A DNA stretch of 64,000 nucleotides from positions 25,015-89,014 of the forward strand of contig DLGJ01000015.1 of assembly GCA_002482645.1 (NCBI GenBank), in the 5' to 3' direction. The position numbers and the translations under genes were made by a program. Under the pieces are notes generated by a model. That model saw nothing but the letters and a program-made list of their open reading frames with translations, was not told the origin of the DNA and did no database searches. The stretch comes from Hyphomicrobiaceae bacterium UBA7697. Lineage in GTDB: Bacteria; Pseudomonadota; Alphaproteobacteria; Rhizobiales; Methyloligellaceae. This document shows, piece by piece, positions 868 through 50,799 of this stretch; the stretch's first letter is position 1, and each line of letters begins with the position of its first letter.

Positions 868-1019
868 GCCTTCTCACAAGAAGAGGGCCGGCACGCATGT
901 CGCGCCGGCCGGAAATTCCGGCTCTTTCTACTGAAGAGGACCGGACGCCGCAACAAGGCTCTCCGCCTCGAATCGCGTGCAGCCTTGACAGAGACCCGCG
1001 CCCGCCCGCCAATGCGCCC

Positions 1020-1796: not shown

Positions 1797-1832
1797 GCGG
1801 CGCCTTTCCGGCCATGACCCCGACGGCCGCCC

Positions 1833-2798
1833 CTAGTAACCCGGAGCGCGGAACCAATTGCCACGCCGCTGCTGGCCGCGCCGGTACTGGCGTGGCGGTG
1901 AATCGTAATAGGGCTGCTGGAAGATGCGCCGGCGCTTGCGCTGCACCCGGGGATCGATCTCGTTATAGCCGTAGCGCTGATAGTTGCGGTTGTAGTAGCC
2001 CTGGTAATTCGGCCGGCGATAGTCCTGGTACGGATCGTAACGGCGCTCCGGCTGGGCGACCTTGTAGTCTCCGCCGGGCGTGGAGCCCGTCAAGACAACT
2101 TCCGTCCGCTTCAACCCCTTATCCTTCACGAGATTGAAGAACGTCTCCGCGTTCTTCGGCGACAGGCGCACACAACCGTGCGACGCGGGCGTGCCCAGCT
2201 TCTTGGTCTCGTTGGTGGCGTGGATCGCGTGCCCCTTCTTCGTGAAAAACACCGCATGCGGCATGGGTGCGTTGTCCCACTGCTTGCTGTACCAGATCTT
2301 GTTCATGGAACTCGCGGTGAAGTCGCCCGACGGCGTCGCATAGCCGGGCATGCCGGTAGACACCGGCCACCGGTATTTCTCGGCACCGTCCACGAAGACG
2401 GTCATCTCTTGCGTGGTCTTGTCGATCGTCGCGACGACGATCGGCGACTGAGGTTCGACCACCTCCGCGGCATCGTCGCTCTTCAGCATTTCTATTTCGG
2501 AATCGTCTTCGCTCGCGCTCGGGACATCCTCCGGATCCGGCCGCGACGCGCTTTTCACCGGCTTTTCAGCCGCTTCGGGCGCGTTCGCGGAGTCGCTCGA
2601 TGCCGCATCGCCGCCGGGATAGACGGGCTGCGGCTGCGCGTCGAGGCCCTTCGGAAGACTGAGATCCAAGTCAGGCGAGGTCGCGTGGACACCGGTCTCG
2701 GCGCTCGCGGGCGACGCAAGCAAAAGCACAGCCAGCCCGGCAGCCGTGAGCGGCAAGCCCAGAATCCGCGGGTGTTGCTGAAATTTTCGGCGCATCAT
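1833..2798 (-). CDS. L,D-transpeptidase family (YkuD) protein with signal peptide
   Basis: Signal peptide; WPVSTG..ATPSG..MPHAVFF..GHAIH..GTPASHGCVRL catalytic motif. Confidence 0.9.
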   Translation of the reverse strand: MMRRKFQQHPRILGLPLTAAGLAVLLLASPASAETGVHATSPDLDLSLPKGLDAQPQPVYPGGDAASSDSANAPEAAEKPVKSASRPDPEDVPSASEDDSEIEMLKSDDAAEVVEPQSPIVVATIDKTTQEMTVFVDGAEKYRWPVSTGMPGYATPSGDFTASSMNKIWYSKQWDNAPMPHAVFFTKKGHAIHATNETKKLGTPASHGCVRLSPKNAETFFNLVKDKGLKRTEVVLTGSTPGGDYKVAQPERRYDPYQDYRRPNYQGYYNRNYQRYGYNEIDPRVQRKRRRIFQQPYYDSPPRQYRRGQQRRGNWFRAPGY

Positions 2799-2958
2799 TC
2801 GTTCCCCGGTTATGCGCGATCCAACCGTCCGGCAGTCTCTAACTTACAGAGCCAAGCCGGCATTTCCACGGCACTTCGCGAAATCGTGTCCAGATATACG
2901 CGAGACACCCAAACAAGAGGTTACCCGCGCGGCCACAAAGCCGAAGCCCACCAATAGG

Positions 2959-3408
2959 TTAGTTGTGGTCGCCCGGTAGCTTTGGCAAGGGGAGCGCCGG
3001 AATTCCCTCGTCGTGCAGCGCCTTGGCCTCATCCACGGTCGCCTCGCCGTAAATGTTGCGCTCCTCGGTTTCGCCATAGTGCATTTTCCGCGCTTCTTCG
3101 GCGAATTTGTCCCCCACATCGTCGGCATTGGACTTCAGATGCTCGCGCAGACCCTTCAGGAAGGCATAGGTCTGCCCCGTGCCCATGGCAGCGCCGTGAG
3201 GCGGCGGATCGGACGGAACGTCGCGCGCGACCGGCGTCTTCCGCCCACGGAGCACGGCGGGCGCCATGGGCACCTTGCTCACCTCGGCGCTGCCGCATTC
3301 GGGGCAGCGGATCGCTTCTGCCTCGGACTGTTCGTCGAAGGAATCGCCGGACGAGAACCACGCATCGAATTCATGCCCCTCGCCGCATTTGAGCGCAAAC
3401 CGAATCAT
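2959..3408 (-). CDS. DUF1178 family protein
   Basis: MIRFALKCGEGHEFDAWFSS..CPECGS..VGDKFAEEARKMHYGE; start overlaps the nitrilase stop. Confidence 0.88.
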   Translation of the reverse strand: MIRFALKCGEGHEFDAWFSSGDSFDEQSEAEAIRCPECGSAEVSKVPMAPAVLRGRKTPVARDVPSDPPPHGAAMGTGQTYAFLKGLREHLKSNADDVGDKFAEEARKMHYGETEERNIYGEATVDEAKALHDEGIPALPLPKLPGDHN

Positions 3409-4292
3409 GATGCTTGCCTCATCGTCGCGCCGGAGGCTTCCACAATCTCGATTTCGAAGTCGCGCCCATGCTTGAGCGCGGGGATCCGCGTGCGCGCGTC
3501 GTCCACCCGGGCAAGATCGATCTCGGCAAAGACGGCGCAAGGATCCTCGCCCGCTTCCGCCAGGATCTCGCCCCAGGGAGACACGATCATCGAGTGGCCG
3601 AAGGTCGAGCGTCCGTTTTCATGCAGGCCGCCTTGCGCCGCCGCGAAGACATACGAGCCCGTCTCGATCGCACGCGCCCGGACAAGGGTGTGCCAATGCG
3701 CCGCGCCGGTCTGTTTGGTGAAGGCGGCAGGAATGGCAATCATGTTGGCGCCGGCCTGGGCCAAAGCCCGGTAGAGCGCCGGAAACCGCAAGTCGTAGCA
3801 GATCGTCATGCCGAGCCGTGCCTGTACGCCGCCAATGGCCAAAGCCGCGACGACCGCCTTGCTGCCGGGATTGTAGTAGTCAGACTCCCGGTACGATTCG
3901 CCGCCCGGCAGATCGACGTCGAACAGATGCAGCTTGTCGTAACGGGCCGCGACCGCACCGTTCGGATCGATCAGATAGGAGCGGTTCGCGATCCGCTTGC
4001 CGTCCAATTCGATGCCGAGGGACCCGAGATGCAGCCAAACGCCGAGCTCGCCGGCAAGCGCCCGGAACAGCGCCAGCGGCGCGCTCTCGGACTCCGGTCG
4101 AATCTGCTTGAGCACACGCTCGGGCTCCAGCTCCATCAACGCGGTGTTTTCCGGCGTTTGAATATATCGCGCGCCGCCCCTCGCCGCCTCGCGGATAAGG
4201 GCCTCCGCCTTGGGCAGATTGTCCGCAATGGATCGTCCGGCGCGCAGTTGCACGAGCGCGGCGCGAAACCGTCTGGCGTTGTCGGAGCTCAT
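3405..4292 (-). CDS. Carbon-nitrogen hydrolase (Nit1-like nitrilase family)
   Basis: TPEN (Glu), YDKLHLFDV (Lys), ICYDLRFP (Cys) catalytic triad. Confidence 0.92.
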   Translation of the reverse strand: MSSDNARRFRAALVQLRAGRSIADNLPKAEALIREAARGGARYIQTPENTALMELEPERVLKQIRPESESAPLALFRALAGELGVWLHLGSLGIELDGKRIANRSYLIDPNGAVAARYDKLHLFDVDLPGGESYRESDYYNPGSKAVVAALAIGGVQARLGMTICYDLRFPALYRALAQAGANMIAIPAAFTKQTGAAHWHTLVRARAIETGSYVFAAAQGGLHENGRSTFGHSMIVSPWGEILAEAGEDPCAVFAEIDLARVDDARTRIPALKHGRDFEIEIVEASGATMRQAS

Positions 4293-4344
4293 TTTGGCGC
4301 TCTCGTCTCAAATGGCGATCCGTCGAAACATTCCAGGCCGACGG

Positions 4345-4360
4345 TTACCGCGGTGTTAAC
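4345..4360. promoter_or_regulatory. CtrA-like box upstream of nitrilase
   Basis: TTAC-N7-TTAAC, one mismatch to TTAA-N7-TTAAC. Confidence 0.3.
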
Positions 4361-4384
4361 CCAAAACGCGGCGAACCGCTGTAC

Positions 4385-5248
4385 CTAGAATACCAAATCG
4401 GCGGGTTCAACGGCGCGCGCCAGCGCCAGCACGTCCACGCGGGCCGCGCCGGCACGCTTCAGGACGCGCGCGCAAGCCTCGACCGTGGCGCCCGTCGTGA
4501 TCACGTCGTCAACGACCAGAACGGACTTGCCGGCGATGATGTGCCGGCGCGGCGGCGCGACTTTGAACGCACCGGCGACATTGCGCTTGCGCTGGGCGGC
4601 GGAGAGACCGACCTGGCTCGCCGTCCGGCGGGTCCGTTGGAGTACGAAACAGTCCGCCCGGACCCCGGTCAGCGTCTCAAGCCCCTGCGCCAGCAAAGCC
4701 GACTGATTGAAGCGCCGGCCCAATAGCCGCGACCGGTAGAGCGGAACCGGAACGAGCAGGTCCGCGCCGGCCAGGAGCTCGGCGCCCGCGCGGGCCATCC
4801 ATCGTCCGAACAGGCGCAAGCCCTCCTGCCGGTCGCGATATTTGAAGCCTTGGACCAGATCGCGCATGGTCTGGGAATAGCGCGCCACGGCCCGCGCGCG
4901 GTCATAGACCGGCGGCGCGGCGATCGCCGCCGCCGACAAAGACGGCTCGCCCGTGTCGTAGGGCAGCGGCACGCCGAGGCGCGCACAAAGAGGAGGCGTG
5001 ATGAACTCGATGCCCGAGAAGCATGGGCCGCAGAGGAGGCCGTGGGAGCCGGCGGGGGCGCGGCAGACGATGCAGACAGGCGGCAGAACCAGATCGGTCG
5101 CCGCGCGCAGCGCGGTCCGCCAGACGGGTTCTCGAATCGCGCCTTCCCGCAGCGCGCCTTCCCGCAGCGCGCTTTCCGGAGTCGCGCCTTCCAGAGTCGC
5201 GCCGATGTCGCTCATCCCCATGGCACGCATCATAATGCGTTCCCGCAA
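4385..5248 (-). CDS. comF: ComF family phosphoribosyltransferase-like protein (true start probably downstream)
   Basis: DLVLPPVCIVC, Zn-finger CGPC, LVPVPL, VLVVDDVITTGAT PRPP motif. Confidence 0.9.
   Translation of the reverse strand: MRERIMMRAMGMSDIGATLEGATPESALREGALREGAIREPVWRTALRAATDLVLPPVCIVCRAPAGSHGLLCGPCFSGIEFITPPLCARLGVPLPYDTGEPSLSAAAIAAPPVYDRARAVARYSQTMRDLVQGFKYRDRQEGLRLFGRWMARAGAELLAGADLLVPVPLYRSRLLGRRFNQSALLAQGLETLTGVRADCFVLQRTRRTASQVGLSAAQRKRNVAGAFKVAPPRRHIIAGKSVLVVDDVITTGATVEACARVLKRAGAARVDVLALARAVEPADLVF
5138..5203. repeat. 15-bp tandem repeat, about 4 copies, in the comF 5' region
   Basis: cgcgccttcccgcag x2 identical plus two degenerate copies; encodes ALREGALREGAIRE. Confidence 0.85.
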
Positions 5249-5263
5249 TGCTGAGGAGACGTC

Positions 5264-6190
5264 ATGAGCGATACACCGCTACTCTTCGACCGGCGCCTCC
5301 TGCGGCAGCGGCGGGCCCGCTTCGCGGACGAGATCGCGGACCGCGAGGTTTTGATCGCCCATGTGGCGCGAGAGATCGCCGAACGCGTCGACATCATGCT
5401 CCGCCCCTTCCCGCGCGCGCTCGACCTCGGTGCCTATCGCGGCCGGCTCGGACAAGATATCGCCGCGCTCAAATCCGTGGGCGAGGTCTTCTACGCGGAA
5501 AGCGTCTACGCATATGCGGCGCGCTGCCCAGGGCCCGCCGTCGTGTGCGACGAGGATCTGATGCCTTTCGCGAACGGCGTATTCAATCTGGTGGTTTCGG
5601 GCCTCGCGCTTCATCGCGTCAACGACCTCCCCGGAAGCCTCATCCAAATCCGGCGCGCGCTGGCGCCGGACGGGTTGTTCATGGCCGCCGCGCTGGGGTC
5701 GAACGCGCTGAGCGAATTGCGGGAGTGTCTGCTCGAGGCCGAGGAGGAGATCGAGGGCGGCGCGTCTCCACGCGTCTCGCCCTTTGGCGACGTGCGCGCT
5801 TACGGCGCGCTGCTGCAACGCGCCGGGTTCGCGCTTCCGGTTACGGACGTCGAAGACGTCACGGTAATCTACCCGTCCCCGCGCGAACTGATGCGCGAAA
5901 TCAGGGCCCTCGGCGGCGGCAACGTTCTCACCGCACGGAGCAAAAAGCCCTTGTCGCGGCGCTCGCTGGCGCGCGCCGAAGAGCTTTACCGCACGCGCTA
6001 CGGCACGCCCGGCGGCAAAGTCACGGCAACGTTCCAGTTCGTTTTCATGAGCGGGTGGGCGCCGGACCCCAGCCAGCAGAAACCTTTGGCGCCGGGAAGC
6101 GCGCGCGCGCGTCTCGCCGATGCGCTCAACACCGAGGAACAATCGGGGGGCGCCAAGGCGTCCTTTCCGCATTCCAAATCGAAGACGTGA
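5264..6190 (+). CDS. SAM-dependent methyltransferase (BioC/NDUFAF5-like)
   Basis: LFDRRLLRQRR, ALDLGAYRG, NDLPGSLIQIRRALAPDGLF, GFALPVTD; conserved divergent partner of comF. Confidence 0.88.
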   Translation: MSDTPLLFDRRLLRQRRARFADEIADREVLIAHVAREIAERVDIMLRPFPRALDLGAYRGRLGQDIAALKSVGEVFYAESVYAYAARCPGPAVVCDEDLMPFANGVFNLVVSGLALHRVNDLPGSLIQIRRALAPDGLFMAAALGSNALSELRECLLEAEEEIEGGASPRVSPFGDVRAYGALLQRAGFALPVTDVEDVTVIYPSPRELMREIRALGGGNVLTARSKKPLSRRSLARAEELYRTRYGTPGGKVTATFQFVFMSGWAPDPSQQKPLAPGSARARLADALNTEEQSGGAKASFPHSKSKT

Positions 6191-37775: not shown

Positions 37776-37852
37776 GGCCCCGTAGCTCAGCAGGATAGAG
37801 CATCAGATTCCTAATCTGAGGGTCGCAGGTTCGAATCCTGCCGGGGTCACCA
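37776..37852 (+). tRNA. tRNA-Arg (CCT)
   Basis: 77-nt cloverleaf; anticodon stem TCAGA-TTCCTAA-TCTGA; T-loop GTTCGAATC; encoded CCA. Confidence 0.97.
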
Positions 37853-38407: not shown

Positions 38408-38995
38408 TCAAGATCCACCGCGTGCCGGAACGCTCGCTTGCAAGCGTGGGAGGAAGTCCCAAAGGTCCCGGTTGAGATCACGCAGACTGCGGATCGCCGC
38501 CGACATTTCATCGATGCGGGCCTTGTCGACCTTACGGGTCTCCCCGAACTTGAACCGGCCCCGCCGTTCCACGATGCGCAAGGACTGCGTGTGCGTGATG
38601 TCGCCCTGCTCGTTGAGCATGAACATCGCGTGATTGAACTCGTTGCGCAGCCGCGTGGCGGCCGAAAAACGGTCGATCAAATCGTCAAGCTCCTGGCGAA
38701 CTTCCGTCTGAGAAATTCGGATGAGCGCCAAGCGCTGTATCAGGTCGAGCCTCGCCCGCGTGGTGTTGAGCGTCGAAAACACGATGGCGGCCGACACCTC
38801 GTCCGTATCGAGCAGAAGCATCAGCACATAGATGAACATGCTTTCGTTGTTGGACCAGCTGAAGGAGAGGTTCCCGATCAGCGCAAGAAGCATCGTCCGG
38901 CGGTCGGCGGACTCGAACGCGGCCGTCTCGATTGATTTGAAGTCCGGTTTAGGCGGCAGCTTTGAATTCATGGGGAGGACTCGCTTTTGATCCAT
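38408..38995 (-). CDS. Alpha-helical hypothetical protein with Rx4H (HEPN-like) motif
   Basis: LIGNLSFSWSNNES..RLRNEFNHAMF; host-like codon usage; start at 38995 or 38971. Confidence 0.7.
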   Translation of the reverse strand: MDQKRVLPMNSKLPPKPDFKSIETAAFESADRRTMLLALIGNLSFSWSNNESMFIYVLMLLLDTDEVSAAIVFSTLNTTRARLDLIQRLALIRISQTEVRQELDDLIDRFSAATRLRNEFNHAMFMLNEQGDITHTQSLRIVERRGRFKFGETRKVDKARIDEMSAAIRSLRDLNRDLWDFLPRLQASVPARGGS

Positions 38996-39056
38996 GAACG
39001 CGCGAAAATGCCGGTCCAACGCCAGTATCGATCCCCTTCCGACAAGGGGTAGTGCC

Positions 39057-39554
39057 ATGTTTGGACTTTTGAAAGTCCGCCGCGCACGCAAGGTCGCCGT
39101 TGCCTTGATCTCTCCTTTCGTCGAGGAGAGTCAGACTCGATTCTCCTCGCAGCTGACAGAACACGCATGGCTTGACCCGTACATGGTCGGCTTCATGAGC
39201 ATGCTGATATCACTGGCCGCCGAATACACGGCGGGACGCCTCGATTCTGAAAGCGCGGGCCTCGTCCAGCTTGAAGCGTGGCAGGAGGTGACAGGTTTTC
39301 CGAGCCACCTGATCGGAGAAGAAATCTGCCTGCTCAGCAGCGGACAGGACCGGAAATTCCGTCATGGCTGTCTCAACGCCAGTCGCTTCATGGAAGAGCT
39401 AACACGTCCCGTGCATAGCCATCCCGATCAGCTTCCGCCCGGCTACCGGACCCACGGCCTCAACTACGACCGCTCCGCAGCGATGGCGCTTTGGTCGGAA
39501 CTTTTTGATGGCCACATCGGGGCGCTCGATGGCGATCTGGGTTTGCCGCGGTAG
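39057..39554 (+). CDS. Hypothetical protein
   Basis: ATG with AAGGGG RBS; protein-like composition (WLDPYMVGFMSMLISLAAE). Confidence 0.7.
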   Translation: MFGLLKVRRARKVAVALISPFVEESQTRFSSQLTEHAWLDPYMVGFMSMLISLAAEYTAGRLDSESAGLVQLEAWQEVTGFPSHLIGEEICLLSSGQDRKFRHGCLNASRFMEELTRPVHSHPDQLPPGYRTHGLNYDRSAAMALWSELFDGHIGALDGDLGLPR

Positions 39555-40088: not shown

Positions 40089-40514
40089 TTACCGGCCGCG
40101 ACGCTGTAGGCGGAGCTTTTGCTCCCAAACGCGCAATCGCAAAAGCATTGCGGTGCCGGTTTTGGCGGTTACGCCCAATATCTTTGCCGCTTTATAGGAG
40201 CTCAGGGACGGCCCCAGCGCACGGCTGAGCATGATGAGCTGCAGCCATTTGTGCATAGGGACCTTGCTGTCCTGAAAGATCGTTCCGAGCTTGACCGTGA
40301 AGGGGCGCCGGCAGTCATAGCACTTATACGTATGGATGCGGGTGCTCTCCCCGGTCAGACGCCCTATGCGGCGGCTGCCTCCGCAATGGGGACAGACCGG
40401 ACCGTCCGGCCAGATTTGTCGCTCGACAAATTCGTAGGCCGCCTCTTCGTCACGAAACGTGCCGAAGTCCAGTGTCTCTCGCCGCTTCATGAGTGTGCCA
40501 GACGCCAGCGACAT
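40089..40514 (-). CDS. IS1595-family transposase N-terminal Zn-ribbon/HTH only (no DDE domain)
   Basis: FRDEEAAYEFVERQIWPDGPVCPHCG..YKCYDCRRPFTVKLGTIFQDSKVPMHKW..SSYKAAKILGVTAKT. Confidence 0.8.
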   Translation of the reverse strand: MSLASGTLMKRRETLDFGTFRDEEAAYEFVERQIWPDGPVCPHCGGSRRIGRLTGESTRIHTYKCYDCRRPFTVKLGTIFQDSKVPMHKWLQLIMLSRALGPSLSSYKAAKILGVTAKTGTAMLLRLRVWEQKLRLQRRGR

Positions 40515-41113
40515 CGCTCGCGATCCTCTAGCCGAGCCACCCGATGGACACGCCCGTAAGCTGTTCCTTCCAACAGACGTTGCCGTGAGCTACGACGCCC
40601 CCGGAATTCTACAGCAGGCCCATTTTGGGCTCAACAGTAGAGTTGGGTACGCGTTGTATACATCGTGGTACGCTTAGTATTATTTTCACCCTTGGCGTTT
40701 GCGTTAGAGGTTTAGCGTAAACAACAAACCTGCTACGTCTTGAGTACGTATTATACAATATCCTATAACATATGCTGCATTACACCATAAGAACTGGGTA
40801 CATATTATGTGCCCTTTGGTATGTATAAGAATATTGCGAAAATTTCTGTGCCTCTTCCTAATATAGGGACCTTGATCGGACCACGTTCCGGTCAAGAAGC
40901 CAGTGGAAGGAGGCGGATACCCAGAGGACTCGTCCCGCTACCACAAGCGGCAGATTGACGGTGCGTCTTGGCGTAAGCGAGCCGTTCCGCGATCGGGGCC
41001 GCAGATGATGATGAACCGAAACTGGATGTCATCGCATATGCGTTCCTCGCCGACGCAGAAGATCAGCGAGATTCTCAGCCGCGATGCGTCCCTGTAAGGC
41101 CAAGGAGACCATC

Positions 41114-41989
41114 ATGGGCTTACGTGACTACGACCCCAGACATAAAAACGACCCTGATCAGGACCAGGATCAGAAGCAAGATCAGGATCAGAAGCAAGAT
41201 CAGGACCAGAAGCAAGATCAGCTTCAGGGCCAGGCACAAGGCCAAGCTCAGGGCCAGGCTCAGCTAGCGGTCCAGGCTCTCTACCAGGAAAGCGACAACA
41301 AGAACGACAACGATAACGACAACAAGAACGAGAATGAGAACAAGAACGAGGTAGAGAACAAGCTCGACAACGAGGTCGAGAACAAACTCGACAACGCGGT
41401 TGAGAACAAGGTCGATAACGAGGTCGACAACAAGGTCAGCAACGAAATCAAGAACGAAGTCGAGAACAAGGTCGACGTGGATGTCGACATTGACATCGAC
41501 CTCGATCTCGACAGCCTGCCGACCGACGACGACCTGATCGATATCGAGAACTTCAATGCGCAGGACAACGAAGGCATCGTCCAAGCTCTCGCCAACGACG
41601 TATGGCAAGATGTCGCCGGCCCGGGCAACGACAACGCCTTCAATATCCAGCAAGTCAACTCGCTCGTCGACAACGACACGCTGGATCGCGCTGAAGTCAA
41701 GTATGACGCCGACGAAGTCGACGGCAAGATGGACGACAAGTTCGACGATGGAAACATCGGCGCAGGTTCGTTCATTCAGCAAGCCTTTGCCGATGGCGGC
41801 GAAGCCAAGATGGACGACGCCATGGCCGAGACCGAGATCGGCAACATCAGCGGTACCGGCAACGCGACCGCCGATGCGATCGTTAATCAGGAAGCGTTCA
41901 CCCAGAACATCGTTCAGGGTGCCAACATCCAGTTCAACTCAAATGAGATCTCGGTTGTTGGTGACGACGCGACTGATGCGATCCTTTAA
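41114..41989 (+). CDS. Acidic Q/N/D-rich repetitive protein, candidate T1SS substrate (major subunit)
   Basis: AAGGAGA RBS; QDQDQK repeats, QGQA repeats, NKxxNExE octads, VDVDVDIDIDLDLD; no signal peptide; no RTX nonamers. Confidence 0.85.
   Translation: MGLRDYDPRHKNDPDQDQDQKQDQDQKQDQDQKQDQLQGQAQGQAQGQAQLAVQALYQESDNKNDNDNDNKNENENKNEVENKLDNEVENKLDNAVENKVDNEVDNKVSNEIKNEVENKVDVDVDIDIDLDLDSLPTDDDLIDIENFNAQDNEGIVQALANDVWQDVAGPGNDNAFNIQQVNSLVDNDTLDRAEVKYDADEVDGKMDDKFDDGNIGAGSFIQQAFADGGEAKMDDAMAETEIGNISGTGNATADAIVNQEAFTQNIVQGANIQFNSNEISVVGDDATDAIL
41153..41270. repeat. 18-bp and 12-bp tandem repeats encoding QDQDQK and QGQA
   Basis: gatcagaagcaagatcag units, then cagggccaggca-like units. Confidence 0.85.
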
Positions 41990-42000
41990 CCCAGCCAAAA

Positions 42001-42027
42001 AGCCCGCGCGGACCCTCCGCGCGGGCT
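42001..42027 (+). terminator. Strong hairpin after the repeat-protein gene (terminator or mRNA stabiliser)
   Basis: agcccgcgcgg-accct-ccgcgcgggct followed by gctctttct. Confidence 0.75.
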
Positions 42028-42117
42028 GCTCTTTCTCAAATAAGAACGAAATTAGCAGGGAGACTTGGATAGAGGCGCCAAGAGCTGGACCAAGAGAAGT
42101 TTGGCGTGGAGGCATCG

Positions 42118-44124
42118 ATGGGCACCGGAGTTGCCGAGATCATCCGTCTGTTCGCAGGGCACTTCCACCTCAGCAATGAGTCGGGGCGCATGCGCCAGAG
42201 CTACGATGAGTTCATGGCCCATCGGGAACGCGACGATTTCGACCCAGGCAAGCATTCCCCCGCTCACAAATCGCCAAATCTAGACGAATTCGATACCGCG
42301 TCCCGATTCGTCGACCCGCAGTCCCCGGCACCCGGCCTGATCGGCTATGGTCCGGCGTCGGCAACCCCATTCCATTCAGGGCCGCGCCCTCCGGACATCA
42401 ATCCGATTGTCGACGAAAAGCTTCCGGACGACCTTCCACCACCGGGCGCTCCCTTCCTGCTCGTTGCTCCCAGCCTGCTGCAGATCGTAACCGTCATTTC
42501 AAACGTACCGGACGAAGCCGCGATCCATGTCACATACGATACAGGCGGCGATCAGCACCTGATCCAAGTCCAACAGCTTAATGTCATGTGGGACAATGAC
42601 ATTGCGATCTCCGAAGCGTGGTCGGTGGAGGCTCTCCAAGCACTGCAGTTTCGAGATATCGCGGAGACGCTTCAGGAACTCCATGACGAGGCGACGGCCG
42701 CGGTCCCTCCCGAGTTTTCCGATCTCGCCTTCAACACGGCGTCGCTCATATCGTTTGCCCGCGAATACGACGCCGCATGGGAAGCCTCGGGCGAAACCAC
42801 CAGAAGCGACGTCGAGCCTGGCGTCTACCTAAATGGCGAGCTTCAACCCGAAGGCACCGAGTTGCCCGTATTTCCGGTCGCGATCGGCTCCGAGGAGGAG
42901 TCTGAAAATCCATACCCGACGGACGTTCCCGCGCAGATCGTAACGGCAGGCTCCAACCTCGCCGCAAATGTCGCGGGCATCTTCGATATCAATCATGCGA
43001 TCGGCACCCTCGTCGTCGTCGGCGATTACTTTCGGACCGACGCTATCGTCCAGCTCAATCTCTATGTCGACGACGACGACATCACATACGCTGGCGATGG
43101 CATTTTCCAGATCGAGGGTGGCGGCAACGAGGCCTTCAACATCGCGACCTTTCTCGACACGGACGCAGGAGTTCCAAGCTTTGCGGGAAGTAATATTTTT
43201 CCCGGAATCGACTGGCACGTCGATGTGCTTGACGGCGACTTGTATGACGTCAGCGTTGTAACGCAGAAGAACTGGCTATACGACAACGACATTTCCGTTC
43301 AGGACGCCTACTTGGCCAACTATCAGCTCTTGATGGGGGCCAACGAGCAAGGCAACTTCGCCGAAATAATAACGATAGACGGAGACTACGATCTGGTCAT
43401 CGTCCTCGGCGACTACCACGAGATCAACTTTATCTATCAGAAGAACGTCCTGCTCGATCCCGACACACTCAAGGTGCTCGGCTACGACGCCTCCTTCCCG
43501 GAAGGCGACGGTCTGTCGGATCCATCCATAACGGCCGGCGCGAACTGGCTTCAGAACGAAGCGTTGATCGAGCAATGGGGAACGCAGGCCTATCAAGCGC
43601 TCACACCGGAATGGGAGGCCTTGATTGCGCAGCTTAAAAGTGGCGATACCGAACTGGATCCTTCGGCAGGAATCGGCATTCCGAACTTCAACGACCCCGA
43701 GTTCAACATCCTGTTGATTACGGGCAATGTCTACGACGTCAACGCCATCGAGCAGGAAAACGTCGTTGCCGATGCCGATGTCGCGCTTCAAGTGTTGCCC
43801 GCCGCGGCCGCGGCCGCCGATCCGGTCATGCAGGTGGCATCCACCGGCGAGAACGCACTCGGGAACTTCGCCACCATCGTCCACACCGGCCCTGCAGCGG
43901 ACTACTACATCGGCGGCGACCTCTATGAGGACGAGCTGCTCATCCAAACCGAATTGGTCGCGACCGATGACGACACGGTAAAGGAGTCGGATCCGGACGT
44001 CTTGGCGAACGAGCTCGTTGCCTTTGCCTCGCTCCCCGAGGGAGACGGTCAGGATGAGGACGCCGTTGCGGTCCCCGTTCACGACTCCGGCCATGCTGAC
44101 GTACTCGGCAATGTCCTCACCTAG
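42118..44124 (+). CDS. Acidic repeat protein, candidate T1SS substrate (minor subunit)
   Basis: GGAGG RBS; five alternating QxNxxxDxD and GxNxxxNxA motifs; no signal peptide or RTX nonamers; directly upstream of the T1SS genes. Confidence 0.85.
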   Translation: MGTGVAEIIRLFAGHFHLSNESGRMRQSYDEFMAHRERDDFDPGKHSPAHKSPNLDEFDTASRFVDPQSPAPGLIGYGPASATPFHSGPRPPDINPIVDEKLPDDLPPPGAPFLLVAPSLLQIVTVISNVPDEAAIHVTYDTGGDQHLIQVQQLNVMWDNDIAISEAWSVEALQALQFRDIAETLQELHDEATAAVPPEFSDLAFNTASLISFAREYDAAWEASGETTRSDVEPGVYLNGELQPEGTELPVFPVAIGSEEESENPYPTDVPAQIVTAGSNLAANVAGIFDINHAIGTLVVVGDYFRTDAIVQLNLYVDDDDITYAGDGIFQIEGGGNEAFNIATFLDTDAGVPSFAGSNIFPGIDWHVDVLDGDLYDVSVVTQKNWLYDNDISVQDAYLANYQLLMGANEQGNFAEIITIDGDYDLVIVLGDYHEINFIYQKNVLLDPDTLKVLGYDASFPEGDGLSDPSITAGANWLQNEALIEQWGTQAYQALTPEWEALIAQLKSGDTELDPSAGIGIPNFNDPEFNILLITGNVYDVNAIEQENVVADADVALQVLPAAAAAADPVMQVASTGENALGNFATIVHTGPAADYYIGGDLYEDELLIQTELVATDDDTVKESDPDVLANELVAFASLPEGDGQDEDAVAVPVHDSGHADVLGNVLT

Positions 44125-44150
44125 AATACGATCAGGGGCGCACCTCCAAC

Positions 44151-46169
44151 ATGGCCGACAATAACCGAAATCCGCTTCACAACGGCAGGACGAACGGAGC
44201 CGGCGCCGACAGCCCCAACGGTTCCGGTTCCGTGTCCACCGAAGCCGGAGAGGAAGCCGCAAGCAGATCGAACCACGGCAGCGGCACGGCGCTCGGCAAT
44301 ATCTTTGACGGCATCAAGAACGGCGCGCGCGCCAATGGTGCCAACGGTCATGGTGCCAACGGTCACGGCGCAAATGGAAGCGCTCCGATCGGCGGACGCG
44401 TCTCCAGTTTGGATTTCCGGGGAGTCCTCACCAAGGGCCTCGCCAGTTGCCGGCGCAACCTCGCGACCGTCGCCGTGTTCTCCTTCGTCGTGAACCTGCT
44501 TGTGCTGTCCATTCCGATTTATCTCTTCAACATCTCCGACCGCGTACTCACGAGCCAAAGCATGGACACGCTCGTCATGCTGACGATCGTCGTCGTCGGG
44601 GCGATCGGCGCGCATGTCCTGCTGGACCTGGCGCGGAGGACCATCCTCATGCGCGTCGCGGTCGATCTGGAGAGCAATCTCGGCGCGCCGGTCTTGAGCG
44701 CGGCGGCCCGATCGTCGCAAAACGGTTCCAGCCGCGAGTTTCAAATTCTGTCGGAACTCCAACACTTGCGTAGCTTCATAACCGGACCGGTGCTCCTCAC
44801 CATGCTCGACATGCCGGTGGTGCCGATCTATCTCGTCGTGGTCTTTCTCGTTCATCCCCACCTCGGTTTCATCGTGCTGGCGACCGGCACCGTGCTGCTG
44901 ATACTTGCGCTCCTGAACCAGAAGCTCACGGCCGTACATTTCGGTCGCGCGAACGCCTTCGGCACACGGGCCAACCTGCAAGCGGACGCCATGGCGCGGA
45001 ACGCGCAGGTGATGAACGCCATGGGCATGGTGCCGGAAGGCGTCTTGATATGGGGCGGCGAGACGGCGGAGTCCTTGAAGTCTCAGGTGTCCGCGCAGGA
45101 TCGCAACATCTGGCTGACAGCCCTGTCCAAGTTCGTCCGGCTCTGTACGCAGATCGCGATCCTCGGCTGGGGCGCTTACCTCGCGACGCACGGGCATTTG
45201 ACCGGCGGCATGATCATCGCGGCGTCGATCGTCGGCAGCCGCGCGCTCTCGCCGATCGAAGGCACGATCGAAGGCTGGCGCAGTTTCGTTCAGGCACGGT
45301 CCGCCTTCGCCCGGGTGAAAAAACTGCTGCAATCCTCGCCGTTGAACTTCGATAGGCTGCGCCTGCCGCGCCCCAAGGGCCATCTCATGGTGGATCGCAT
45401 CCTCTACGTGCCGCAGCCCGCGAAGAAGGTCATCCTGAACGGTGTTTCGTTCGAACTGCAACCCGGCGAGTCTCTTGGAATTGTCGGCGCGTCCGGAACC
45501 GGAAAGTCGACCTTGGGAAAGATGCTCGTCGGCTCGATCTTTCCCACGGCGGGTAACGTCCGCCTCGACATGATGGATCTACGCAACTGGGATCCGCGGC
45601 AACTCGGCGAGAACGTCGGGTATCTGCCGCAAGACGTCCAACTTTTCCCCGCGTCCATAAAAGAAAACATCGCCCGCATGCGTAGAGACGCGAGCGATGA
45701 ATCCATCTTCGATGCCGCGGAGATGGCGGACGTTCACAGCATGGTATCGGAGTTCGCTCAAGGGTACGAAACGCAAGTTTCCATGGATGGAACGCCGCTT
45801 TCGGGCGGCCAGAAACAGCGTATCGGTCTTGCCCGCGCCTTCTTCGGAGATCCGCAACTCGTCGTACTGGACGAGCCGAACTCCAATCTCGATCCGCCGG
45901 GAGAACGTGCGCTGGCGCGCGCTCTGGGGCTGGCGAAGGAGAAGCAGATCACGGTGATCGCGATCACCCAGCGGCCGTCGCTGCTGAGAAGCGTCGACAA
46001 GATCCTGATCCTCAACAAAGGAACGGTTCAGGCGCTCGGCGATCGCGCCGATATCATTCCGCTGCTCACGGCGCGCAAGGAGCTCGCAACGCAAAAGGCC
46101 GCCGCCAATGGCGGCGAGGCGGACTATCAGGCCGAGGAACTAGACGACCTGGACCGCCAAGGCGATTAG
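44151..46169 (+). CDS. Type I secretion system permease/ATPase (PrtD/AprD-like)
   Basis: DRVLTSQS, TM region, GASGTGKST, LSGGQKQRIGLARA, LDEPNSNLD. Confidence 0.95.
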   Translation: MADNNRNPLHNGRTNGAGADSPNGSGSVSTEAGEEAASRSNHGSGTALGNIFDGIKNGARANGANGHGANGHGANGSAPIGGRVSSLDFRGVLTKGLASCRRNLATVAVFSFVVNLLVLSIPIYLFNISDRVLTSQSMDTLVMLTIVVVGAIGAHVLLDLARRTILMRVAVDLESNLGAPVLSAAARSSQNGSSREFQILSELQHLRSFITGPVLLTMLDMPVVPIYLVVVFLVHPHLGFIVLATGTVLLILALLNQKLTAVHFGRANAFGTRANLQADAMARNAQVMNAMGMVPEGVLIWGGETAESLKSQVSAQDRNIWLTALSKFVRLCTQIAILGWGAYLATHGHLTGGMIIAASIVGSRALSPIEGTIEGWRSFVQARSAFARVKKLLQSSPLNFDRLRLPRPKGHLMVDRILYVPQPAKKVILNGVSFELQPGESLGIVGASGTGKSTLGKMLVGSIFPTAGNVRLDMMDLRNWDPRQLGENVGYLPQDVQLFPASIKENIARMRRDASDESIFDAAEMADVHSMVSEFAQGYETQVSMDGTPLSGGQKQRIGLARAFFGDPQLVVLDEPNSNLDPPGERALARALGLAKEKQITVIAITQRPSLLRSVDKILILNKGTVQALGDRADIIPLLTARKELATQKAAANGGEADYQAEELDDLDRQGD

Positions 46170-46179
46170 GAGTGCTGAG

Positions 46180-47520
46180 ATGAGTCAGGGACCGGCTCCC
46201 CAAGAATGGCATGCGGGCATTCCCCGTTCGACGCGCACCGCGACGATATTTGGCTTTTTGGTCATGGCCGCATTCTTGCTCGGCTTTGGGTCGTGGGCAT
46301 CCACGGCCCCCATCGCCGGCGCGATCATTGCCGGCGGTTCCTTCGTCGCAACCGGTGAAAACAAGATCATTCAGCATCTGGAAGGCGGCGTAATCAAAGA
46401 GATCCGCGTTCGCGAAGGCGACGTCGTCGAGAAGGGCGATGTTCTCATTGACCTGGACGAAAGGGAGCCGCGGACGGAGTTGCGCCGCTTGGAATTGCGC
46501 AAGGCCCGCGCCGTGGCCCAGGAAGCACGCCTGACCGCGGAAATGAACGAACAGGATGATGTGACGTTCCCGCGAGAACTCGCCGGTCGCGAATTCGATC
46601 CGGACATCTCGGAAATACTGGAACGCGAACGCCAAGCCCTGACGGCAAGACGCAATGCCGTCAAAACCGAAATCGCAACGCTCATGGAAGGCGTCGACGC
46701 CTTGGATCAACGGGTCGAAGGCGGAAAGCTCCAACTCGCCGCGGTCCAGCAGCAGTTGGCCTATGTTGAGGAAGAACTCGATGGAAAGCGGACCTTGCTC
46801 AAGAAGGGGCTCATCCGCAAACCGGAAGTTCTGTCGTTGGAGCGCGCCAAAGCGAACCTCTCGGGTGAGATCGGCAGGCTCAATGGAGAGATTGGCGACG
46901 CACGCGAAAGAATCGCACGCATCATGGAGCAGGTGACCGGCGTCCGAAACAATACCGTCAAGGCCGCGGTGGAGGAGATGCACAAAGTCTCCGCCGAACT
47001 CAAGGACGTACGCGAACTCATAAACGCGGCGAAGGCCGTCGTCGAGCGGGTCAGCATCACCGCGCCGGTCAAGGGTATCGTCGTGAAGCTCCAATACCAC
47101 ACGCCCGGCGGCGTCATCGAGCCGGGCAAGCCGATCATGGAAATACTTCCCGTTCAAGCGGAGCTGCTGATCGAGGCGCAAGTCAGACCCCGGGACATCG
47201 ACGTCGTCAAACGCGGCCAGCACGCCATGGTTCGGCTCTCCGCTCTCAATCGTCGTATCACGCCAATGATCCCCGGCGAGGTCGTGTACGTCTCCGCGGA
47301 TTCCTTGGTGTCGGGGAAGCAGGAAGCACAGCAAAGTCCCAGCGACGTCTATATCGCACGCATCAGGTTGAATCTGATCGAGGCATCGAAACTGCCGGAC
47401 TTCGCGCCCACACCCGGAATGCCAGTCGAGGTCTATATCAAGACCGCAGACCGGACCTTCCTCGAATATCTCTTCAAGCCTATCGAGGATAGCATGTCTC
47501 GAGCGTTCCGTGAGTTGTGA
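46180..47520 (+). CDS. HlyD family type I secretion membrane fusion protein (PrtE-like)
   Basis: N-terminal TM; KIIQHLEGGVIKEIRVREGDVV; ITAPVKGIV; TPGMPVEVYIKT. Confidence 0.95.
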   Translation: MSQGPAPQEWHAGIPRSTRTATIFGFLVMAAFLLGFGSWASTAPIAGAIIAGGSFVATGENKIIQHLEGGVIKEIRVREGDVVEKGDVLIDLDEREPRTELRRLELRKARAVAQEARLTAEMNEQDDVTFPRELAGREFDPDISEILERERQALTARRNAVKTEIATLMEGVDALDQRVEGGKLQLAAVQQQLAYVEEELDGKRTLLKKGLIRKPEVLSLERAKANLSGEIGRLNGEIGDARERIARIMEQVTGVRNNTVKAAVEEMHKVSAELKDVRELINAAKAVVERVSITAPVKGIVVKLQYHTPGGVIEPGKPIMEILPVQAELLIEAQVRPRDIDVVKRGQHAMVRLSALNRRITPMIPGEVVYVSADSLVSGKQEAQQSPSDVYIARIRLNLIEASKLPDFAPTPGMPVEVYIKTADRTFLEYLFKPIEDSMSRAFREL

Positions 47521-47555: not shown

Positions 47556-49064
47556 TCAATGGACGAGCGTGATCGGCCCGTTCTGTAAGCGCGTCGCGGT
47601 GTGGTACGCCGAGGTGGCCTCTCCGGTTTTACCCAGAGCCAGCAGAACCTGCGCGAGCCGCGAGTACACCTCCGCGTCCGACGGTTTTCGCTGGAGAGCT
47701 TGACGGTACGTCTTTGCCGCGTCCTCGAAGCGCGTCTGCGCCTCGTAGGCAAGTCCAAGCCGAAGCCAGGCGTTGTGCGCGTCCGGCTTGATGGACACAA
47801 GTTTCCGGAACATTTGGGTTGCACCGCGATAGTCGCCCTTGCGCATCAAGAGCTGCCCGCAACCATACAGCGCCGCCGGAGATCGAGGCGTCACCTTGAG
47901 CACCTGACGATAGCCGCGCTCGGCGCCGGCGAGCTTGTTCGCCTTATGGAGCTGTATCGTTTTCTGAAGGACGCGTGAAATGCAGCGAGGATCGAGCTTG
48001 CCGCCGAGATTCTGATTCCCTGGCGCCGTGATGACGAGATTGCTGAGCAACGCTTCGTCGACGCCGAACATGTATTTGTACTCTTCGTTCCCGCGCAGAA
48101 AATCGTACGTAACGATGCCGTTCCCGATGGCATGCCGCAGACTGTAGGCATGGAGCGCGACACCCGGCGGCACCGGGCTACGTACCGTTTCGTCGCGGCC
48201 GGCCATGAAGAACAGAAACGCTTTCTTCTGACGGTCGACCAGGGTGGCGAGCGCACCGAGCGGCTTGTCTCCTTGCCACATGACGGGGAGAAAAAGGGCG
48301 CCGCCGTCGAAGCATGCCCTGAACATGCCTCGGTTCGTGCGCACCAATCTGTGCAGCCGGTCCCCTTTGCGCTGCGCCCATTTGGTGCGCCAGAAATTCA
48401 TAAGGATGTCGAGGTCGCGATCGATCGTGTCCTCGTTGGCGACCGTAATGCGGTACTCCTGTCCATCGTCGATCTTCCGCAGAAAGCGGCGCATCTTTTG
48501 TCGTGTGTTCGAGCCAAGCCCTGCAAGATACGCGTCCCAATTTTGCGGCAGGCCGACATACGGACAAACGAGATTGTTGACGTTGTCCAGCTTGTTGACG
48601 GCGGGAATCTCAATCCGGCGAAAGTCGCTCGAGGGCAAACTTCGCAAGAGGCGTTCCAGCCTGCCGGGAGACGACCGGAAGAACTCCAGCATCAACACGG
48701 ACCAGTTGGCCCGGCGAAGAAAGCGGCCGAAGGCGGATACCGTTTGTCCTTCGTATTCGGGACGCGTGATGAGGCCGGAATAGTCGGACAATCCCCGGCC
48801 GGCGAGCGAAATCTCGTTGTAGAAACCTCCCTCCCGCCTGCGCATTTTTGTGCGCAGTCTCAGAGGAAAGAACGCCACATAGCCGGAAGACCGGCCGGGC
48901 GCGGCGGCGAGAATGAACCATTGAGACCTGTCGCCATCGAGCCAGCGTGAGATCCAGGTCCACGACAAGAAGAACTGCGCCTCGGGATCGCTCGCATACA
49001 CGGCGTCCCAATTTTCCCTGATATCAAGCAACTCTTGGCGCGTCTCGATGATGTCAATGCGCAT
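47556..49064 (-). CDS. GNAT family (CelD/BcsL-like, Acetyltransf_6) protein with C-terminal TPRs
   Basis: FFLSWTW, DYSGLI, CPYVGLPQNWDAYL, YDFLRGNEEYK, then TPR-like helices. Confidence 0.85.
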   Translation of the reverse strand: MRIDIIETRQELLDIRENWDAVYASDPEAQFFLSWTWISRWLDGDRSQWFILAAAPGRSSGYVAFFPLRLRTKMRRREGGFYNEISLAGRGLSDYSGLITRPEYEGQTVSAFGRFLRRANWSVLMLEFFRSSPGRLERLLRSLPSSDFRRIEIPAVNKLDNVNNLVCPYVGLPQNWDAYLAGLGSNTRQKMRRFLRKIDDGQEYRITVANEDTIDRDLDILMNFWRTKWAQRKGDRLHRLVRTNRGMFRACFDGGALFLPVMWQGDKPLGALATLVDRQKKAFLFFMAGRDETVRSPVPPGVALHAYSLRHAIGNGIVTYDFLRGNEEYKYMFGVDEALLSNLVITAPGNQNLGGKLDPRCISRVLQKTIQLHKANKLAGAERGYRQVLKVTPRSPAALYGCGQLLMRKGDYRGATQMFRKLVSIKPDAHNAWLRLGLAYEAQTRFEDAAKTYRQALQRKPSDAEVYSRLAQVLLALGKTGEATSAYHTATRLQNGPITLVH

Positions 49065-49338: not shown

Positions 49339-50430
49339 TTGTTTGGGTGGTCGATCTCCGCAGGGCTGACCCCATCTCATCGGCCGCGAACGGCAACGTA
49401 TGAGGGCTTCATTACTTGCAGCGAATGCGATGCGCCGTGGGCGGAGCAACTCGCCCGGCATCTCGAGCGCTACTACGCGATCTGCCCGGCCGTGGGGAAA
49501 CGGCATTTCTTCCGGGCCCCCGCCGTCGAAAACGCGGACTACGCACTGCCACAGACCACGATCAACGCCTTGGAGGCGTCCCGGTCTCTTATCGTGATTT
49601 GCTCGCCGGCGGCGGCTAGAAGTCACCACGTCAACGAAGAGATCCGGGCTTTCAAGACACACCATCCGAGCCGGCCCGTCTTCCCTCTCATTGTCGATGG
49701 CAAGCCTGGCGATGAAGACGGAGAGTGCTTTCCCCCATTGCTGAGATTCGAGTTGGATGACGATGGCCGTATCGCGAAAGGGCCCATCGACGTCGAAGCG
49801 ACCGATGCCCGTCAGGGCACGCGCGAACATGAGCGTGCCGCGGCGCGGATAGCATCCGATCTGTTGGGTTTGTCCTCGGACAGGAGAGCCCGGCGGGAGC
49901 CGCGCCGAAAAACGCGAGCGTCGGATCACCGCCTCGGGTTCTTGATGAACCTCTCCATCGTTGTGGGCTTTGCCATCATCGTCGTTTGGAATGGACTGAC
50001 GACCAACGAGGCGTTTCTCGACCGGACATTGTATCTCGTCAGCACCAGCCTTGGGGCCACGGCGCGGCAGGCGATCGCCTACGGCACGCCGCAAACGGCC
50101 GTCGTCAACGTCCTCGAGTATGGCGAGTCCATGCTCTCGGATGTCATGAAGCGTGGCCCTCTGACACCTCAAACGGAATACCGAAGAGCGACGGTCCTGC
50201 TCCAATTGGCTGGCGTCTATAGAGACCTCGGAGACAAGGAAAAGGCGCTGGCCCTCGCCGACGACGCCCAGCACCTCTTGTTTTCGTTGCGCAATGTCGA
50301 GGCGGCGAATGCCAAATTCGAACGCCGCCTGGAGATCGCCGAAGAAGATCTGGCGACGATCCGAGCAGAGCAGGATCTTTCGGTTGATCGTCCAGAGGAG
50401 GGGCCGCCGCTCTCCAAATTGCCCCGATGA
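49339..50430 (+). CDS. TIR-domain protein with TM helix and short TPR-like tail (divergent)
   Basis: TTG start with GAGGGAGG RBS; YEGFITCS, LIVICSPAAARSHHVNEEI, VFPLIVDG.P, ECFPP; TM LGFLMNLSIVVGFAIIVVW. Confidence 0.75.
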   Translation: MFGWSISAGLTPSHRPRTATYEGFITCSECDAPWAEQLARHLERYYAICPAVGKRHFFRAPAVENADYALPQTTINALEASRSLIVICSPAAARSHHVNEEIRAFKTHHPSRPVFPLIVDGKPGDEDGECFPPLLRFELDDDGRIAKGPIDVEATDARQGTREHERAAARIASDLLGLSSDRRARREPRRKTRASDHRLGFLMNLSIVVGFAIIVVWNGLTTNEAFLDRTLYLVSTSLGATARQAIAYGTPQTAVVNVLEYGESMLSDVMKRGPLTPQTEYRRATVLLQLAGVYRDLGDKEKALALADDAQHLLFSLRNVEAANAKFERRLEIAEEDLATIRAEQDLSVDRPEEGPPLSKLPR

Positions 50431-50770: not shown

Positions 50771-50799
50771 TCGCAGGCTCGAATTCTGCCGGGATCGCC
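50771..50799 (+). repeat. Degenerate copy of the tRNA-Arg 3' end (candidate attR)
   Basis: tcgcaggctcgaattctgccgggatcgcc versus tRNA 37823-37851 tcgcaggttcgaatcctgccggggtcacc, 25/29. Confidence 0.8.

Follow-up and report, generated by a model that had tools for sequence, protein, structure and literature searches.

A two-block repeat protein encoded with a PrtD-type type I secretion system: a putative non-RTX passenger in Hyphomicrobiaceae bacterium UBA7697

Background

What does a type I secretion system (T1SS) export in a bacterium whose genome holds no repeats-in-toxin (RTX) protein? The question is raised by a 64,000-nucleotide stretch of DNA from Hyphomicrobiaceae bacterium UBA7697 (the window; all coordinates of the locus refer to it), in which the genes of two proteins, here called A and B, are followed by those for a PrtD-type ATP-binding cassette (ABC) transporter and a membrane-fusion protein (MFP). 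A preliminary description of the window had noted in B an unnamed repeat in strict order, and had proposed a beta-solenoid nucleator, tip or anchor subunit. We confirm here that B is a conserved member of a large unnamed family that has neither a Pfam or NCBIfam model nor a solved relative. Judged from their sequences and surroundings, A and B are the evident cargo pair of a non-RTX T1SS module, B being a non-RTX repeat passenger. We further propose, with a probability of roughly 55%, that B acts with A outside the cell as a structural element of stacked beta-strands.

The repeat and the family of protein B

All the peptides quoted in the preliminary description were found in B, strictly alternating. 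With residues counted from the GTG at 42106, the pattern QxNxxxDxD occurs five times (residues 157, 316, 387, 445 and 550), GxNxxxNxA also five times (282, 339, 411, 478 and 581) and G(D/N)x(Y/F/H) six times (148, 306, 377, 435, 540 and 604), the copy at residue 148 (GDQH) being one that had been overlooked. When the sequence of B was shuffled 20,000 times with its composition preserved, the patterns averaged 0.015-0.033 copies per shuffle and none exceeded two, against the five observed. G(D/N)xY and QxNxxxDxD are contiguous and the spacing from G to Q is constant at 10 residues (9 in the first copy); therefore, the unit is bipartite and not tripartite as first described, and the block made up by these two motifs (block Y) has six copies, where five and a partial sixth had been counted. 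Together with the GxNxxxNxA block (block X), the layout of B is Y0-X1-Y1-X2-Y2-X3-Y3-X4-Y4-X5-Y5, a stack that opens and closes with Y and carries helical inserts between Y0 and X1 and between X4 and Y4.

From 126 homologues some 600 copies of the blocks were collected, which gave the consensus h-h-h-V-x-G(99%)-D-x-Y-D-x-N-x-I-x-Q(99%)-x-N(80%)-h-h-x-D(75%)-x-D(84%) for block Y and T-G(84%)-x-N(89%)-x-h-x-N(96%)-x-A(81%)-x-I-x-D for block X. In both, the conserved residues occupy every second position and thus lie on one face of the strand. The distances between successive X blocks of B are 57, 72, 67 and 103 residues, with loops of variable length. Hidden Markov models (HMMs) of the blocks matched five X copies and five strong plus one weak Y copies in B, and disclosed no other carrier of the repeat among the remaining proteins of the genome. 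Since the blocks within B are mutually only 19-39% identical and the gene contains no DNA tandem repeats, the repeat must be ancient and not recently expanded, and we rejected a recent duplication on the same grounds.

The coordinates first given for the B gene were exact. The ATG at 42118 is taken as the true start because GGAGG lies 5 nt upstream of it and the homologues begin with MGTG or MATG at the equivalent Met. The protein is strongly acidic (pI 4.05; 116 D+E vs 19 K+R) and has no Cys, and its sequence displayed no signal peptide, transmembrane segment or GGxGxD motif. It begins with a conserved peptide whose residues E11, F16, G18 and R30 do not vary within the family, and the Pro-rich linker that had been noted near the N-terminus is indeed present (Table 1). 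The last 47 residues are acidic, conserved and disordered, and share the family pattern LxxExxAF...D-h-h-x-x-h-h-x. An acidic residue followed by hydrophobic ones at the extreme C-terminus is the pattern described for substrates of PrtD-type exporters. This tail is a candidate for an uncleaved T1SS secretion signal.

When 1.84 billion cluster representatives (50% identity) were searched with a profile, 745 family proteins were retrieved at E <= 1e-3, 512 of them at E <= 1e-30, so that the family comprises at least 745 clusters. Nearly all members are 630-710 amino acids long and are matched from end to end with a constant architecture. The motif residues are invariant in 14 homologues down to 28% identity, and invariant or at least 90% conserved in the 126 homologues. 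Named members belong to Methyloceanibacter, Hyphomicrobiaceae, Rhodobiaceae, Phyllobacteriaceae, many Rhizobium species and Devosia. The family was found only in Alphaproteobacteria, mostly Hyphomicrobiales, with no match outside that class in a phylum-level draw of genomes. Its distribution is patchy: 2 of 301 genomes sampled across the class, 30 of 401 genomes (19 of 150 genera) sampled across the order, and three of the ten genomes of the genus, including one in which the gene is in three pieces. The gene is nearly always single-copy and accessory. In the congeneric genome just mentioned (G431:C2:76479-78468) it takes the form of three consecutive open frames, either a frameshifted pseudogene or an assembly error.

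Searches of the databases gave no family assignment. Pfam yielded no match for B at E <= 0.1 (hence none to Curlin_rpt) and none for ten diverse relatives at E <= 0.01; the best NCBIfam match was irrelevant (E 0.086), and the PDB had no match either by sequence or by profile. An RTX or haemolysin assignment was rejected, B having neither a GG.G.D motif nor a Pfam match and the genome no PF00353 protein, and the lack of a Pfam match in B and the ten relatives likewise led us to reject an autotransporter. The possibility, considered in the preliminary description, that the repeat belongs to one of these known families was in this way checked and set aside. The curlin assignment was discarded on the Pfam result and on the length of the units (57-103 amino acids), and a pectate-lyase-like one on the best structural matches (tapirin and pectin methylesterase, E 0.07-1, TM score <= 0.08) and the absence of Pfam and PDB-profile matches. 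We found no paper on the B family, and a literature search on Rhizobium loci (gmsA/RL1661, toaDE, tobDE and neighbouring RL tags) gave no mention of the module genes.

Predicted fold

The full-length AlphaFold2 (AF2) model, built from 14 sequences, was poor overall, with a predicted local distance difference test (pLDDT) score of 63, but consists of a beta-rich core flanked by disordered stretches of 136 N-terminal and 49 C-terminal residues. Modelled by itself with 126 homologues, the core (residues 137-625) gave a pLDDT of 93.6 and a predicted template modelling (pTM) score of 0.92, the five models ranging from 91.9 to 93.6, and structure prediction thus did return a repetitive fold. In the model the strand pattern is the same from unit to unit: after a short opening strand come one of 11 residues (block X) and one of 6-7 residues (hhhhh), then the GD turn, a strand of 14 residues with the rest of Y, the DxD turn and a last short strand.

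In two Foldseek searches the top-ranked neighbours were predominantly parallel beta-solenoids and beta-helices, none of them significant. CsgA and FapC held the top ranks in both (E 0.016-0.09, TM score <= 0.13, not significant); for CsgA, the core matched 8c50_A with E 0.016 and TM scores of 0.05/0.06, and 8enq_A with E 4.5. Pectinases, the AlgE4 A-module, tapirins and RbmB were among the weak neighbours. The repetitive all-beta core and the solenoid type of its neighbours support the beta-solenoid first proposed. The likeness to curli that had also been pointed out fared less well: although CsgA and FapC rank first, the scores are not significant and there is no Pfam match, and what is left is a resemblance only. 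On the model, we suggest that the core has a solenoid-type local geometry and a rung shape without solved counterpart. As the model is confident and yet finds no structural neighbour in the PDB, the solenoid geometry may be a new one.

The gene module and its likely client

We surveyed 38 related loci (designated by L numbers) by tblastn and HMM searches. The order A-like gene, B, ABC transporter, MFP, a small protein of no family (about 160-230 amino acids) and a GNAT-TPR protein holds from Methyloceanibacter to Rhizobium, and the ABC and MFP genes accompany B in every locus with enough flanking DNA. The GNAT-TPR gene is conserved in L001, L003, L010, L012 and others; in the two Devosia loci, which gave no match to it, the other five members are retained. 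The Rhizobium counterpart of the small protein has 163 amino acids and sits between the MFP and GNAT-TPR genes.

The genome, rated 100% complete, contains only one PrtD-type ABC transporter above cut-off, which is that of the module, and a single TolC gene, located away from it. Over the whole genome no HemolysinCabind (PF00353) protein was found by a search that detected its positive controls, Caulobacter and Synechococcus. Since the genome offers a single PrtD-type T1SS and no RTX cargo for it, A and B are the only evident clients of this transporter. Moreover, B is encoded together with an ABC transporter and an MFP, as T1SS passengers are, TIGR01842 and TIGR01843 following directly downstream. 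We consider it highly probable that B is exported by the adjoining T1SS.

An A-like gene always precedes B. The A-like proteins that could be read out share a conserved C-terminal domain of about 150 amino acids and range from 287 to 470 amino acids through variation of their low-complexity region, whereas B is of constant length. In the A gene of the window, tandem repeats of the DNA overlap one another at positions 41156-41513, their periods being 6, 12, 18 and 24 bp among others. A hairpin stands directly after the A stop codon (Table 1), and GC hairpins of comparable strength were found in the A-B spacer of six of nine loci (L001, L003, L006, L008, L009 and L016), those of L020, L033 and L037 being weaker. 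Such a hairpin fits a candidate attenuator, whose action would leave B scarcer than A; as B follows it, B is probably the less abundant product.

Comparison with known systems

Protein B shares several features with RTX passengers, such as the proteases of PrtD/AprD systems, NodO and RsaA. Like them, it is encoded beside a PrtD-type ABC transporter and an HlyD adaptor, is acidic and Cys-free, lacks an N-terminal signal peptide and has a disordered C-terminal tail, and its repeat turns carry conserved Gly and Asp residues, which suggests folding outside the cell. However, it displays neither the GGxGxDxUx nonapeptide nor a HemolysinCabind match, and its unit has 57-103 residues with two long strands, in contrast to the 9-residue turn of the RTX beta-roll.

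The Curlin_rpt unit reads S-x5-Q-x-G-x-G-N-x-A-x3-Q and is about 22 amino acids long. B resembles the curli proteins CsgA and CsgB in its strand-turn-strand units with Gln, Asn, Ala and Gly at alternate, presumably inward positions, in belonging to a pair with, probably, a major and a minor partner, and in the rank of CsgA in the Foldseek searches. Its units are, however, two to four times longer and do not match Curlin_rpt, and its module encodes a T1SS and has no CsgE/F/G-like genes, whereas curli are exported by Sec and CsgG. Pseudomonas FapC and FapB are similar to B in their large imperfect repeats with variable linkers and, for B by prediction, one wide rung per repeat. FapC was second in rank but not significant (E 0.07-0.4) and has no sequence relationship to B, and the Fap proteins leave the cell through Sec and the FapF porin, unlike the T1SS predicted for B.

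With the ice-binding adhesin of Marinomonas primoryensis (region RIV) and adhesins of LapA type, B has in common its acidic nature and, as we propose, a solenoid of Ca2+ type and T1SS export; its N-terminal element and long flexible spacer recall the retention or tether of LapA-type proteins, and may act as one. Nevertheless, the RIV structure 3p4g came only 21st in Foldseek (E 5.7), and B is not a giant protein and lacks both a folded retention domain and LapG/LapD partners.

Krehenbrink and Downie reported that R. leguminosarum 3841 carries two PrsD-like T1SS, toaDE and tobDE, for which no substrate was found (PMC2275737). They resemble the B module in being of the AprD/PrtD type, and Rhizobium species do carry the module; the two systems are a lead only. 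Orphan systems of this kind have been a puzzle in rhizobial genetics since 2008 (PMC2275737), and the B family would supply a cargo for PrtD-type systems without an RTX client.

A model for protein B and the alternatives

In the reading that we favor, B would remain unfolded in the cytoplasm and pass outwards with its C-terminus leading, through the PrtD-type ABC transporter, the HlyD adaptor and TolC. Outside the cell it would fold into a stack of fixed size with 5.5 repeat units, in each of which the long X strand (G-x-N-x-x-x-N-x-A-x-I) would pack on the long Y strand (Y-x-x-x-x-I-x-Q-x-N-h-h), so that the conserved Asn, Gln, Ala and Ile would line up on a single face in the manner of Asn/Gln ladders; Ca2+ may be bound at the turns, by the GD and DxD conserved there. 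Folded B would then serve as an extracellular structural element with A, which would be co-exported, more abundant and variable in length. Last to come out would be the N-terminal peptide and the Pro-rich spacer (about 100 residues), through which B could stay attached to the cell surface. Secretion, Ca2+ dependence, A:B stoichiometry, tethering and the role as scaffold or nucleator are our proposals. What we observed is the repeat with its family and gene module, a genome without other T1SS clients, and a repetitive beta model of high confidence. The nucleator, tip or anchor role first proposed is plausible, being compatible with a B of fixed size beside a variable A, with the spacer hairpin, with a Y-type block in A and with the N-terminal peptide and Pro spacer of B. 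With its putative Asn/Gln ladders and its acidic turns, B is a protein in which extracellular folding without RTX repeats can be put to the test.

A more elaborate version, to which we give only tentative and rather doubtful standing, is that A and B form a T1SS-dependent system of templated fibres, in which a pre-folded B solenoid, held at the surface by its N-terminal peptide and Pro-rich spacer, would be the seed, its terminal Y rung would template the stacking of the abundant, length-variable A, and either A or B would be modified by the GNAT-TPR protein. If true, this would be a further dedicated pathway for functional-amyloid-like proteins beside curli and Fap, and such seeded A-B fibres would mean that Alphaproteobacteria of soil, sludge and roots have a new secretion route for matrix proteins of amyloid-like type.

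Several points weigh against the structural role proposed for B. Parallel stacking in register is a proposal drawn from the periodicity of the conserved residues and the type of structure that Foldseek returned. Solenoids predicted by AF2 for perfect repeats are known to be over-confident (PMC11795689); this is less worrying for B, because its blocks have diverged to 19-39% identity and its alignment is deep, and we rejected such an artefact on that divergence and on the lack of DNA tandem repeats. The sequence of B contains no Ca2+-binding motif of a known type. The similarity between the blocks of A and B is weak and gives a hint only: hhalign aligned GNDNAFNIQQVNSLVDND of A with GGDQHLIQVQQLNVMWDND of unit 0 of B at E 1.3e-3 but with a probability of only 18%, and the block HMMs had no significant match in A (Y block, E 4.6). 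No usable RNA run for the locus was found among sequencing runs, those with a substantial share of it being metagenomes classed as probable DNA, and the matching RNA runs sharing 4-5% of words, which stem from the low-complexity DNA of A. Finally, a beta-helix of fixed size encoded beside polysaccharide genes in Rhizobium would fit an enzyme too.

According to this last explanation, B would be a secreted polysaccharide-active beta-helix enzyme or lectin (a glycanase, lyase, epimerase or binder) that acts on exopolysaccharide, like the T1SS-secreted PlyA and PlyB of Rhizobium or the AlgE epimerases of Azotobacter. The Rhizobium module adjoins GT2 cellulose-synthase-like, GH26, DUF995 and two epimerase genes; an Acetyltransf_6 (CelD-like) protein belongs to the module itself, the weak Foldseek neighbours include pectinases, the AlgE4 A-module, tapirins and RbmB, and the fixed size of B would suit an enzyme. 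We regard it as unlikely all the same. Helices of the pectate-lyase type usually detect each other in Foldseek, whereas here the best E was at least 0.07 with TM scores <= 0.08, and neither B nor the 10 relatives matched Beta_helix, Pectate_lyase or NosD of Pfam. The conserved residues are core and turn positions of every unit and do not form a single localised site, and the polysaccharide genes of the Rhizobium locus are absent from the Methyloceanibacter island studied here. Somewhat harder to sustain is that B is itself a self-polymerising functional amyloid of the curli or Fap type, its ends stacking head to tail and A being an accessory. The top ranks of CsgA and FapC, a Q/N/A/I periodicity that recalls the curli ladders and a stack with the same type of block at both ends (Y0 and Y5) all speak for it, but those matches are not significant, Curlin_rpt is not matched, the two helical insertions and the long disordered ends would hinder head-to-tail stacking, and the position of B after the hairpin makes it probably the less abundant product.

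That the module is a toxin or bacteriocin system, in which B or A plus B would harm competitors and the small conserved proteins would give immunity, appears to us very unlikely. Its patchy, accessory distribution (in 3 of the 10 genomes of the genus and 19 of the 150 genera of the order), its location on a tRNA-Arg island of lower GC and the two small conserved proteins of no family that it includes would fit such a system. On the other hand, B has no recognisable toxin domain and no RTX or pore-forming signature, its ordered part is entirely repeat stack, and its architecture and length are constant over 745 clusters, with no polymorphic C-terminal region. Least probable of all, and in our opinion scarcely credible, is that B is not secreted and is simply a cytoplasmic or periplasmic neighbour of the transporter. 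The two orphan T1SS of R. leguminosarum 3841, without detectable substrate in the laboratory (PMC2275737), show the kind of case that this would be; yet B and the transporter stay syntenic without exception in distant genera, the genome offers the transporter no alternative client, and the composition of B is that of a passenger.

Features and surroundings of the locus

Table 1. Features of the A-B locus and its module, by position in the window
Feature	Coordinates	Strand	Basis or remarks
Small no-family protein of the module	38408..39091	-	34% identical to the 163-amino-acid Rhizobium protein
IS1595-type Zn-ribbon protein without transposase domain	40089..40514	-	69% identity, same place, in L008/L009
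Protein A	41084..41989	+	Low-complexity acidic N-terminal region and conserved C-terminal domain; ends DAIL
Hairpin, 12 bp (10 GC)	42001..42027	+	About -27 kcal/mol; directly after the A stop codon
Protein B gene	42118..44124	+	668 amino acids from ATG; frame open from GTG at 42106
Conserved N-terminal peptide of B, TEIIxLFAGHFHLxxExxRxRxxYDEF	42118..42225	+	Family conservation; modelled at pLDDT of about 25
Pro-rich disordered spacer, residues 41-136	42226..42513	+	19.8% Pro; poorly conserved
Repetitive all-beta core, residues 137-625	42514..43980	+	AF2 model; repeat-block HMMs
Block Y0 (IHVTYDTGGDQHLIQVQQLNVMWDNDI), N-terminal half-unit	42529..42609	+	Motif scan; hhalign; G-to-Q spacing 9
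Helical insertion Y0/X1, residues 174-228	42625..42789	+	DSSP, both models
Unit 1: X1 (GSNLAANVAGI) and Y1 (VVVGDYFRTDAIVQLNLYVDDD)	42937..43083	+	Motifs, block HMMs
Unit 2: X2 (GGNEAFNIATF) and Y2 (VLDGDLYDVSVVTQKNWLYDND)	43108..43296	+	Motifs, block HMMs
Unit 3: X3 (GANEQGNFAEI) and Y3 (IVLGDYHEINFIYQKNVLLDPD)	43324..43470	+	Motifs, block HMMs
Unit 4: X4 (GANWLQNEALI), helical insertion (residues 501-522) and Y4 (LITGNVYDVNAIEQENVVADAD)	43525..43785	+	Motifs, HMMs, model
Unit 5: X5 (GENALGNFATI) and Y5 (YIGGDLYEDELLIQTELVATDDD)	43834..43977	+	Motifs, block HMMs
Disordered acidic C-terminal tail of B	43981..44121	+	Conserved LANELVAF; ends DVLGNVLT (D-h-h-G-x-h-h-T)
PrtD-type T1SS ABC permease/ATPase	44151..46169	+	TIGR01842, 686 bits (cut-off 510)
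HlyD-family T1SS periplasmic adaptor (MFP)	46180..47520	+	TIGR01843, 385 bits (cut-off 209)
GNAT (Acetyltransf_6, CelD/FemAB-like) and TPR protein	47556..49064	-	Pfam; convergent with ABC/MFP

The module lies on an island of about 13 kb that extends from a tRNA-Arg(CCT) gene (37776-37852) to a 25/29 direct repeat of the tRNA 3' end (50771-50799), with no integrase between the two. The GC content drops at the tRNA, from 64.9% upstream to 58.7% in the island. Near-identical A-B loci (41000-44200) were found in bioanode, activated-sludge, sludge, landfill and sediment metagenomes, habitats that are all biofilm or floc.

The Zn-ribbon protein is conserved in closer relatives, as is orf186, and has counterparts in two distant Hyphomicrobiales metagenome-assembled genomes (L008, 6193-6519; L009, 3999-4322). 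On account of its conserved position and 69% identity, this open reading frame (ORF) looks like a fixed part of the module and not like the remnant of an insertion sequence, and it is possibly a regulator. Another ORF of no family (38994-39554, plus strand) travels with the module and is conserved in L003, L008 and L009. The annotated 5' ends of this ORF and of the small protein at 38408-39091 on the minus strand overlap, and at least one true start must therefore lie further in.

The N-terminus of the ABC transporter (44151-44440) is a Gly/Asn/Ala-rich low-complexity extension of about 95 amino acids, neither C39 nor C39-like by Pfam, and the extensions are longer still in the orthologues of Rhizobium (766 amino acids) and Devosia (827 amino acids). 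In Rhizobium ruizarguesonis (L001), the polysaccharide genes and a GerE-type regulator gene adjoining the module occupy positions 1-4568 and 5289-6071 of the locus, and in Devosia a LuxR-type response regulator stands upstream of A. At the far end of the island studied here is a gene for a TIR-domain protein (49339-50430).

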